Shown here in pieces: positions 7,756-35,470 of a stretch of DNA of 46,986 nucleotides; position 1 is the stretch's first letter; each line of letters begins with the position of its first letter. The notes below the pieces were generated by a model. It saw nothing but the letters and a program-made list of their open reading frames with translations. It was not told where the DNA came from and did no database searches. The position numbers and the translations under genes were made by a program. Source of the DNA: Candidatus Woesearchaeota archaeon (GTDB lineage Archaea > Nanobdellota > Nanobdellia > Woesearchaeales > SKGA01); the NCBI GenBank assembly GCA_016926395.1, contig JAFGOT010000031.1, positions 1 to 46,986 of the forward strand, in the 5' to 3' direction.

Positions 7756-7837
7756 GCCAAAGTCGCATAATCCGGTATTGCGCCAGTCTCGAAAACTGGT
7801 TCCTTTGGAATTCCCGGTTCAAATCCGGGCTTTGGCG
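7756..7837 (+). tRNA. tRNA-Ser(CGA)
   Basis: Acceptor GCCAAAG/CTTTGGC plus G73, anticodon arm CCAGT-CTCGAAA-ACTGG, long variable arm TTCC-TTT-GGAA, T arm CCCGG-TTCAAAT-CCGGG. No encoded CCA. Confidence 0.95.
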
Positions 7838-7930
7838 CTTTTTGTATTTCTCTAGCATCATTCTCAATTTAATCAGAAAAGTGACAAGATTGGTTTGTGC
7901 CAATCATTTTCAAAGAAAATTATTGTGTCA

Positions 7931-7951
7931 CAAATCCGGGCTTTGGCGCCA
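7931..7951 (+). repeat. direct repeat of the tRNA-Ser 3' end, ending in CCA
   Basis: CAAATCCGGGCTTTGGCGC (19 bp) at 7931-7949 is identical to 7820-7838, and this copy reads ...GGCG-CCA. Confidence 0.93.
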
Positions 7952-8019
7952 TTTACAACCTCTATTGAAAACCTTTATAAAAGAAATATTGATTCTTCTA
8001 ACTACTGAATTTATTCTAT

Positions 8020-8148
8020 GCGGGAGTAGTTCAGCCTGGTTAGATCGCCACGCTCATAAATGCTTGTTGAGCGATGAGACGTAATTGTCAATGATTATCA
8101 ACATGTGGTGCACCGTGGAAGTCCGGAGTTCAAATCTCCGCTCCCGCA
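8020..8148 (+). tRNA. tRNA with CAT anticodon (probably elongator Met), intron about 8059-8112
   Basis: Acceptor GCGGGAG/CTCCCGC plus A, anticodon stem CCACG/CGTGG with loop CTCATA interrupted by about 54 nt at position 37/38, T arm CGGAG-TTCAAAT-CTCCG. It lacks the initiator GGG/CCC pairs. TTTATAAA at 7974-7981. Confidence 0.88.
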
Positions 8149-8150
8149 CT

Positions 8151-35339: not shown

Positions 35340-35411
35340 GCACTGGTAGTCTAATGGTTAGGATAGTGGCCTTCCAAGCCATTGATCCGGGTTCGAATCC
35401 CGGCCAGTGCA
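35340..35411 (+). tRNA. tRNA-Gly(TCC)
   Basis: Acceptor GCACTGG/CCAGTGC plus A, anticodon arm GTGGC-CTTCCAA-GCCAT, T arm CCGGG-TTCGAAT-CCCGG. No encoded CCA. Confidence 0.96.
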
Positions 35412-35453
35412 TTTATGCAATGGTAAGGGACCAATAATCTATGATTATTGTTT

Positions 35454-35470
35454 TCCCGGCCAGTGCACCA
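35454..35470 (+). repeat. direct repeat of the tRNA-Gly 3' end followed by CCA
   Basis: TCCCGGCCAGTGCA (14 bp) at 35454-35467 is identical to 35398-35411, then CCA follows. Confidence 0.9.

Follow-up and report, generated by a model that had tools for sequence, protein, structure and literature searches.

Short hairpin-rich spacers between duplicated tRNA 3' ends in a Woesearchaeota genome: probable small insertions with target duplication

What places a second copy of a tRNA gene's 3' end a short distance beyond the gene? The question is raised by contig JAFGOT010000031.1 of a Candidatus Woesearchaeota archaeon (assembly GCA_016926395.1), a stretch of 46,986 nucleotides (nt) that we analyzed at full length and refer to as the window (contig C37 of the genome, G000, which is 1.017 Mb, has 32% GC, and is 82.5% complete). 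Two of its three tRNA genes, tRNA-Ser(CGA) and tRNA-Gly(UCC), are each followed by a spacer and then by a copy of their own end, with CCA on the downstream copy; the third, tRNA-Met(CAU), has a canonical intron and no 3'-end duplicate. A first-pass annotation of the window had offered four explanations, namely, tRNA-derived mini-RNAs, retro-copied mature tRNA ends, an alternative 3' exon joined by splicing in the T loop, and minimal tRNA-targeting elements, and the last of these fits best. We interpret the loci as small noncoding insertions at the T loop or 3' end that came with a duplication of the target, the upstream copy being the working one and the downstream copy the displaced original end, and we put the probability of this interpretation at roughly 55%.

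The repeats themselves are exact (coordinates in Table 1). At tRNA-Ser(CGA), 19 nt (CAAATCCGGGCTTTGGCGC) recur at an offset of 111, as the first-pass annotation had noted; TTTTT follows the first copy and CA the second, so that G-CCA (7948-7951) is formed at copy 2 only. Folding of positions 7878 to 7933 gives, as the minimum-energy structure, the three-way junction that it had drawn in the spacer, GTGACA(7881)/TGTCAC(7926) around GATTGG/CCAATC and ATTTTC/GAAAAT (-16.2 kcal/mol; z = -3.55; 2/200 shuffles equal or better). Its alternative, a 53-nt CCA-ending unit (7899-7951), is at chance level (z = -0.02; 96/200 shuffles as good), as is the duplex of spacer and duplicate (z = -0.17), which bears out its own caution that a 5-nt match of GCCAA to the tRNA start might be fortuitous. 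At tRNA-Gly(UCC), the repeat is 14 nt long (TCCCGGCCAGTGCA; offset, 56), the second copy runs into CCA, and the unit folds into an extended hairpin with A-CCA at its end (z = -4.03; 0/200 shuffles). The Ser layout is present in sequencing reads, since run X2 yields a contig of 246 nt that matches 7801-8046, spacer and duplicate included, with 0 differences; as independent support, this contig is weak because run X2 may be an assembly source. Simple tandem duplication was rejected for both loci, because the sequence beyond copy 2 does not repeat the spacer.

The layout extends well beyond the window. By the criterion that 12 nt or more of the last 30 nt of a tRNA recur exactly within 300 nt, 8/28 tRNA genes of G000 (ARAGORN calls, with Rfam RF00005 as a second basis in the window) have their 3' end repeated downstream on the same strand, compared with 0/28 upstream, 0/28 in reverse complement, and 22/3000 random 30-mers; four matches of 5' ends in this control are adjacent paralogous tRNAs. 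The eight duplicated genes (exact repeats of at least 14 nt, starting 42 to 123 nt past the gene) are those for Asn, Ser-GCU, Gly-GCC, Ile-UAU, Val-UAC, Leu-UAG, Ser-CGA, and Gly-UCC. A ninth unit, at Leu-UAA, has a 17-nt repeat that straddles the gene end (8 nt of tRNA plus 9 nt of trailer), and Leu-UAG has a third copy behind a different spacer. The first-pass annotation's suspicion that the arrangement is systematic is therefore confirmed, at 9/28 tRNAs of this genome and many tRNAs of its relatives. Repeats start at T-loop positions 56 to 61 in seven of the nine units (Val-UAC, ~49; Leu-UAA, ~69), and, as at att sites, direct repeats of the tRNA's 3' part flank the insert, the upstream one completing the gene. 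There is a gap in size: 42 to 141 nt separate the tRNA end from its duplicate in the nine units, one further tRNA has its duplicate 7.3 kb away, and the 3 kb scanned contain none of intermediate size.

The CCA is distributed unevenly among these genes. It is encoded directly after the first copy in 6/28 tRNA genes, and it follows copy 2 in five of the nine units, exclusively so in Ser-CGA, Gly-UCC, and Gly-GCC and on both copies in Val-UAC and Leu-UAA; the other four have it on neither copy, and one relative (locus L034) has it on copy 1 only. A CCA-adding enzyme, for which the first-pass annotation had proposed to look, is encoded in G000, so upstream copies can be matured. The first copy is followed by a run of five T at Ser, six at Gly-GCC, and only three at Gly-UCC. 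In older units (Ser-GCU, Leu-UAA, Leu-CAA, and loci L048 and L052), copy 2 is diverged or interrupted, and pairing with the 5' end of the tRNA is retained by copy 1.

We sampled relatives through 60 loci of ~3 kb at Gly and Ser tRNAs in 40 genomes of the same order, a sample biased toward these two tRNA types. A downstream copy of at least 12 nt was found at 14 of the 58 tRNAs in the fetched loci: two are the window's own, nine belong to relatives with the copy 61 to 119 nt past the gene, one lies at +339, and the remaining two (L032 and L049) are neighboring paralogous Ser genes. Two identical units stand in tandem in each of L033, L039, L043, and L044, and tandem identical units also occur in L247. 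The tRNA-Gly of genome G010 is 100% identical to that of the window, yet it is followed by a different insert of ~104 nt with a 10-nt duplicate (below the 12-nt threshold), and orthologous Ser(GGA) loci have the upstream gene in common, differ downstream, and contain units in some genomes only; both cases point to turnover of the units. Syntenic orthologs of tRNA-Gly(UCC) in G003 and G013 retain the window's downstream gene, have an encoded CCA, and lack a unit, and many Ser genes of relatives end in an encoded GCCA; the original end at the window loci therefore probably had CCA. Scanning one genome per species for a 20-nt core of the Ser-type units returned 10 loci, of which six have the succession of tRNA end, spacer, core, and duplicate (five metagenome-assembled genomes [MAGs] of Woesearchaeota or Nanoarchaeota and one record labeled Methanosarcinales), one (L251, in a record labeled Methanosarcinales) has a partial layout with the tRNA outside the view, and three are unrelated bacterial contexts.

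All spacers are built alike, with a T-rich start resembling a normal tRNA trailer and a stable hairpin module at the end, adjoining copy 2. One such module, hairpin H (consensus CAAWAATC-NNN-GATTWTTG), makes the Gly-UCC unit a member of a dispersed family. G000 has nine exact H sites, including that of the window, and H occurs in 19/41 genomes of the order (loci L065 to L083 in relatives; reversed control pattern, 0); it is mostly intergenic and often lies just past the 3' end of a gene, and a further closing stem, variable in sequence and with a one-base bulge, is frequently present. About 14 sites in G000 are good H sites, nine of them flanked by direct repeats of 14 to 32 nt and two of these nine not at tRNAs. 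These two inserts are situated exactly at the stop codons of PCNA (C2:22596-22675; L087) and of an open reading frame (ORF) of 212 amino acids (aa) (C24:25865-25969; L086), where 20 and 32 nt, respectively, of the coding 3' end are duplicated; in PCNA, TAG ends the first copy and TAA the displaced one. A search of H-bearing loci against Rfam gave no family other than tRNA above threshold (one subthreshold GP20-b match; E = 0.05).

In the short H units, the duplicated target is present once more, inverted and imperfect, as the spacer's 5' arm. H and the inverted copy occur together, each time within flanking repeats of 14 to 32 nt, at Gly-UCC (z of the inverted-copy duplex, -4.4), Leu-UAG (-3.5), Gly-GCC (-2.2), and the stop codons of PCNA (-4.7) and the 212-aa ORF (-3.0). 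By sequence reading, the direct copies are identical and the inverted copy is roughly 70 to 85% complementary, so equal neutral decay of two unconstrained copies is not the expected history.

Longer units match their targets in another manner, in that 10 of 21 contain an antisense copy of the host T loop, always 31 to 41 nt past the gene. This segment follows the host, reading GATTCGAAC at Gly and GGATTTGAAC at Ser in two genomes whose spacers are otherwise homologous (G010-Gly and G001-Ser, with target-specific ends), and, by pairing with copy 2 in the T-loop part of the latter, it closes a multihairpin domain. Between G008 and G005, 40 pairs of this domain are kept, with 5 compensatory changes, 3 one-sided changes, and 0 broken pairs; the compensatory changes imply that the hairpins matter to something. 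Leu-UAA and Leu-CAA have 56 nt in common at 93%, and the stems of several units contain G-T pairs on the tRNA-sense strand only. The Ser(CGA) spacer of the window has neither an inverted target copy nor an antisense T loop; related copies at unrelated sites are seen for the H family, including the Gly unit, and not for this unique spacer. A C/D-box reading of the antisense T-loop segment was discarded, as no C/D boxes are present at the right spacing (by eye).

According to the insertion model, a tRNA gene would receive a hairpin-rich, noncoding insert of ~40 to 140 bp in the region of its T loop and 3' end, accompanied by direct duplication of 10 to 30 nt at the tRNA end, and the upstream repeat would stay joined to the gene as its working 3' end. 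Transcripts would end within the T-rich first part of the spacer, their trailers would be trimmed, and the CCA-adding enzyme would supply CCA. As for the downstream repeat, it would represent the gene's original end with its encoded CCA and its own trailer retained, an orphan that would decay with time. The inserted piece probably consists of the spacer and one repeat, and the inserts are probably small nonautonomous mobile elements rather than leftovers of large ones, which is favored by the bimodal sizes, the modules common to different targets, the target-matching segments, and the tandem units.

Several observations weigh against this interpretation. No transposase or integrase is linked to the small units, and in G000, whose 82.5% completeness limits all negatives on enzyme families, matches to Cas1, Y1 transposase, and reverse transcriptase (RVT_1) are absent and the single TnpB-domain match (PF07282) is below the family cut-off, so that no cognate transposase was found; a casposase-like origin of the 14- to 15-nt repeats was accordingly dropped for lack of Cas1, as was an IS200/IS605-like guide-hairpin idea for lack of Y1. 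Tyrosine recombinase (PF00589) loci are near a tRNA in only 2/31 cases in the genus, and the sequence 3' of the tRNA in the four loci with SSV-type integrases (see below) is unlike the left ends of the units (judged by eye, without a motif scan). The repeats range from 10 to 32 nt and so do not have the fixed length of a target-site duplication, and the compensatory changes would also fit an RNA useful to the host. The Ser(CGA) spacer has no second copy in G000, the fetched loci, the 40 relatives, or viral contigs (its junction module has 0 matches in the last), and its mobility is therefore argued by analogy only. Finally, an empty Ser allele was not found, there being no joined form among the contigs of runs X1 and X2; metagenome scans for the predicted empty junction, and for any arrangement of the repeat with the downstream flank, had 0 matches and are uninformative, as the organism is apparently absent from those metagenomes.

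The one distant duplicate in the genome belongs to an element of a known kind. At tRNA-Arg(UCG), the 16-nt 3' end CCTCCTGGGGTCACCA, from position 61, recurs 7.3 kb downstream (C17:14612-22059; L084). An "archaeal phage integrase" (PF16795; E = 4.8e-40) is encoded beside this tRNA and is split, with a 68-aa N-terminal part ending across the right repeat and a 317-aa C-terminal part starting at the left repeat. Because this is a split SSV-type integrase, we take the region to be a real integrated element, which follows the same duplication logic at a 7.3-kb scale; for the remaining ORFs of the element (356, 482, and 685 aa), Pfam gave no match that exceeds the family cut-off. SSV-type integrases were detected in 4/41 genomes, each directly after a tRNA. 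On the window's contig there is no match to PF00589 or PF16795, and the inserts, with spacers of 42 to 127 nt, contain no integrase gene, in agreement with the first-pass annotation, which had seen no integrase nearby. Elsewhere in G000, PF00589 has five matches, four of them above the family cut-off, and three PF00589 matches, one below the cut-off, lie within 6 kb at the end of a contig (C30:1-6300; L085).

The intact Arg element and the position of all four SSV-type integrases raise the possibility that the small units are scars of integrase-mediated integration, their repeats being the attL and attR of a kb-sized virus or plasmid that subsequently shrank to 40 to 140 bp by deletion of its interior. 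Repeats that run from the T loop to the gene end are reportedly typical of att identity blocks (Williams 2002), and integrated elements leave partial tRNA genes according to PMC9897764. We nevertheless find this origin unlikely: sizes fall into two classes (42 to 141 nt versus 7.3 kb), one hairpin family recurs at different targets with its own target-matching inverted segment at each, deletion is not expected to yield tandem identical units, and the dissimilarity by eye between post-tRNA sequence at SSV-type loci and spacer left ends tells against this origin as well. Rather improbable, too, is that the units are structured RNAs useful to the host and cotranscribed with the tRNA, for example, a module for processing or punctuation or a minihelix that resembles an acceptor and ends in CCA, with the repeat kept equal by selection. 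The Gly hairpin ending in A-CCA, the covariation between G008 and G005, the 20-nt core identical in several Woesearchaeota and Nanoarchaeota MAGs, and the G-T pairs confined to the tRNA-sense strand all speak for such a function; on the other side are the patchy presence at orthologous tRNAs, the unrelated spacers at the same tRNA, the decay of downstream copies at several loci, the restriction of CCA on the downstream copy to five of nine units (exclusive to it in three), the T runs after copy 1, which should end transcription (only three T long at Gly-UCC), and the uniqueness of the Ser(CGA) spacer. The data at the Ser and Gly loci do not fit a 53-nt mini-RNA.

Nor do the data at these two loci fit splicing, and it is very unlikely that the units are T-loop introns, for which the splicing endonuclease would cut the spacer and copy 1 from a read-through precursor and the downstream 3' exon, with its CCA, would be ligated to the tRNA body. 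Archaeal introns are recognized by a bulge-helix-bulge (BHB), which our own scorer describes by the central-helix pairs out of 4, the exon-side helix length, and the intron-side helix length; five canonical introns of G000 serve as controls and score (4,6,4), (4,6,3), (4,5,1), (3,7,2), and (3,3,3). No BHB with flanking helices was found at the window loci, where the best scores are (4,0,0) for Ser, from a palindromic CCGG, and (4,1,1) for Gly; by hand, the central helix at 59/60 has 2/4 pairs in Gly and 1/4 in Ser. As copy 1 already completes the tRNA and is followed by a T run, and no BHB is present, nothing needs splicing there. Relatives are another matter, and in them the splicing proposal of the first-pass annotation holds: true T-loop introns at 59/60 interrupt the tRNA-Asn of G030 (36 nt) and the tRNA-Asp of G037 (168 nt), genes that ARAGORN and Rfam miss as they stand and that ARAGORN recognizes only once the insert is removed in silico, and the relative unit L044 is BHB-like at 59/60 (4,5,1). 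The Asp intron contains H with a closing GTCC/AGGA, and it is one of two homologous inserts of 129 and 168 nt in neighboring tRNAs (L073, 960-1630) with conserved ends ACGACC...GTCGAYGAAAG. A splicing endonuclease gene is present in G000, with only one domain found, in a 219-aa frame whose size suggests the strict-specificity type. Retro-copying, either of mature tRNA 3' ends or as minus-strand primer-binding sites for tRNA-primed reverse transcription, is extremely unlikely and does not fit the data. It would account for CCA on copy 2 but not copy 1 at Ser-CGA, Gly-UCC, and Gly-GCC, and copy 2 plus CCA, read in reverse complement, gives a TGG... sequence of 17 to 21 nt, the length of a primer-binding site; the genome, however, has no RVT_1 match at 82.5% completeness, the layout recurs at stop codons of protein genes, four of its nine units have no CCA on copy 2, and L034 has CCA on copy 1 only. 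The first-pass annotation had taken the downstream CCA as a possible sign of a copied mature end, but encoded CCA is normal in this genome, and the pattern is explained without retro-copying because orthologs, such as those in G003 and G013, encode CCA.

Two minor points on structure at T-loop sites may be added. The Gly hairpin also offers a "BHB" in mirror image, with a UAA bulge, a GGGA/UCCC helix, and a UUU bulge; it was rejected, as each helix strand has its bulge on the 5' side, the reverse of what the control introns show. The tRNA-Ile of G030 (L071, ~1380-1620) also appears by eye to have a T-loop insert.

A more specific version of the insertion reading is possible, though we advance it tentatively and think it more apt to be wrong than right: the units may be footprints of a family of very small hairpin elements, mobile in Woesearchaeota-like DPANN archaea, that home to T loops and gene 3' ends by pairing of the inverted, imperfect target copy that they carry, and that persist, depending on the host, either as spliced 59/60 introns or as an insert plus duplicated 3' exon. 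One unit, i.e., repeat plus spacer (56 to 60 nt in the short H type), would then correspond to a rod-like circular or hairpin intermediate.

Duplicated tRNA ends beside integrated viruses are textbook knowledge. That archaeal viruses and plasmids integrate site-specifically into tRNA genes is described in PMC3293823 and PMC9897764, and G000 has a bona fide SSV-type example at tRNA-Arg(UCG). The units differ from such elements in that they measure 40 to 140 bp, encode nothing, and have no accompanying integrase; their repeats are 10 to 32 nt long, versus 44 bp as quoted for SSV1, and several carry an inverted target copy and a common hairpin. Fujishima et al. (2010) are said to have made proposals on the gain of noncanonical archaeal tRNA introns by transposition or from mobile elements. 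Such noncanonical BHB introns have been proposed to transpose or to arrive via mobile elements (Sugahara et al. 2012, PMC3293823), and the arrival route of Asgard tRNA introns is stated as still open in a 2026 preprint (10.64898/2026.10.13.758758). Noncanonical introns have their place in the tRNA, T loop 59/60, in common with the units, and the T-loop intron in the tRNA-Asp of G037 contains the same H and closing GTCC/AGGA; unlike such introns, the units of the window leave the upstream 3' end complete and have no BHB motif. The units are also reminiscent of miniature inverted-repeat transposons (MITEs) and other palindromic nonautonomous elements in being short, noncoding, hairpin-forming, multicopy, intergenic, and flanked by direct repeats, and a MITE-like element resembling a small RNA (sRNA) is described for Pyrobaculum in PMC6009581. 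They depart from MITEs in having repeats of variable length and a palindrome with one arm made up of target sequence, different from target to target, and no partner transposase was found. A further parallel, in shape only, is with recombination sites that act as folded single strands: in short H units, the spacer arm and the downstream repeat form an imperfect duplex that mimics a double-stranded target, with unpaired bases midway. Integron attC and CTX phage attP are such folded single-strand sites.

In the literature searched, we found no account of structured, gene-less insertions of 40 to 140 bp at a third of a genome's tRNAs, only kb-scale elements, intron surveys, and the MITE-like sRNA element. 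The insertions at stop codons of protein genes, the target-matching segments, and the hairpin inside genuine T-loop introns of relatives add to the interest of the units. If the link to introns is true, these loci would be snapshots, and testable intermediates, of how noncanonical archaeal tRNA introns are gained. On the practical side, downstream fragments and working copies without CCA will mislead tRNA annotation in DPANN genomes.

The features of the window are collected in Table 1; Rfam families other than tRNA have no match in the window.

Table 1. Features of the two duplicated tRNA loci and of the control tRNA gene (window coordinates)
Feature	Position	Strand	Remarks
tRNA-Ser(CGA)	7756-7837	+	Complete cloverleaf, no encoded CCA, next letters C and then T5; ARAGORN, Rfam RF00005 (56 bits)
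Ser direct repeat, copy 1	7820-7838	+	T-loop position 56 to discriminator +1; within working tRNA
Ser spacer, left part	7839-7880	+	T-rich, trailer/terminator-like (TTTTTGTATTTC...), no significant fold (whole spacer, z = -0.91)
Ser spacer, structured right part	7881-7931	+	Three-way junction adjoining repeat copy 2
Ser direct repeat, copy 2	7931-7949	+	Runs into CCA (7949-7951); read as displaced original 3' end
tRNA-Gly(UCC)	35340-35411	+	Complete, no encoded CCA; ARAGORN, Rfam (72 bits)
Gly direct repeat, copy 1	35398-35411	+	Position 60 to discriminator
Gly inverted repeat copy, imperfect	35416-35430	+	TGCAATGGTAAGGGA versus reverse complement TGCACTGGCCGGGA; duplex z = -4.44, 0/300 shuffles
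Hairpin H in Gly spacer	35432-35450	+	CAATAATC-TAT-GATTATTG; member of dispersed family
Gly direct repeat, copy 2	35454-35467 + CCA 35468-35470	+	Read as displaced original 3' end
tRNA-Met(CAU) with canonical anticodon-loop intron	8020-8149	+	Positive control for BHB scoring

Repeated sequences of two further kinds came to light in the searches. Downstream of Ser tRNAs in L052 (G008), L053 (G009), L054 (G005), and L043 (G001) is a repeated unit of ~55 nt (AGCGACA...GTGAATCT...TTCTAACGCGGTGGCGC TTCATT) with an acceptor-like end, GGTGGCGC; it appears to be placed inside an orphan 3' copy, which suggests nested insertions into a relic. Viral contigs contain more than 125 matches to H, mostly uninformative for so short an AT-rich palindrome. 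Within larger repeated elements of GC-rich (52 to 58%) viral contigs from IMG/VR (L115 to L117, L134 to L136, L150, L119, L126, and L161), the same AT-rich hairpin is framed as GGCCCCCTTGTGTAAAGGGGGCTGT-hairpin-ACTGGGGGATTGTCA, in up to four copies per contig or in tandem units of 113 nt.

Methylation guides encoded in introns occur in other archaea. The introns of tRNA-Met (window, 8058-8112) and tRNA-Trp (C2:67457-67510) have C/D-box-like motifs in common (GCGATGAG ... CAATGATTATC), which is consistent with intron-encoded guides of this type.

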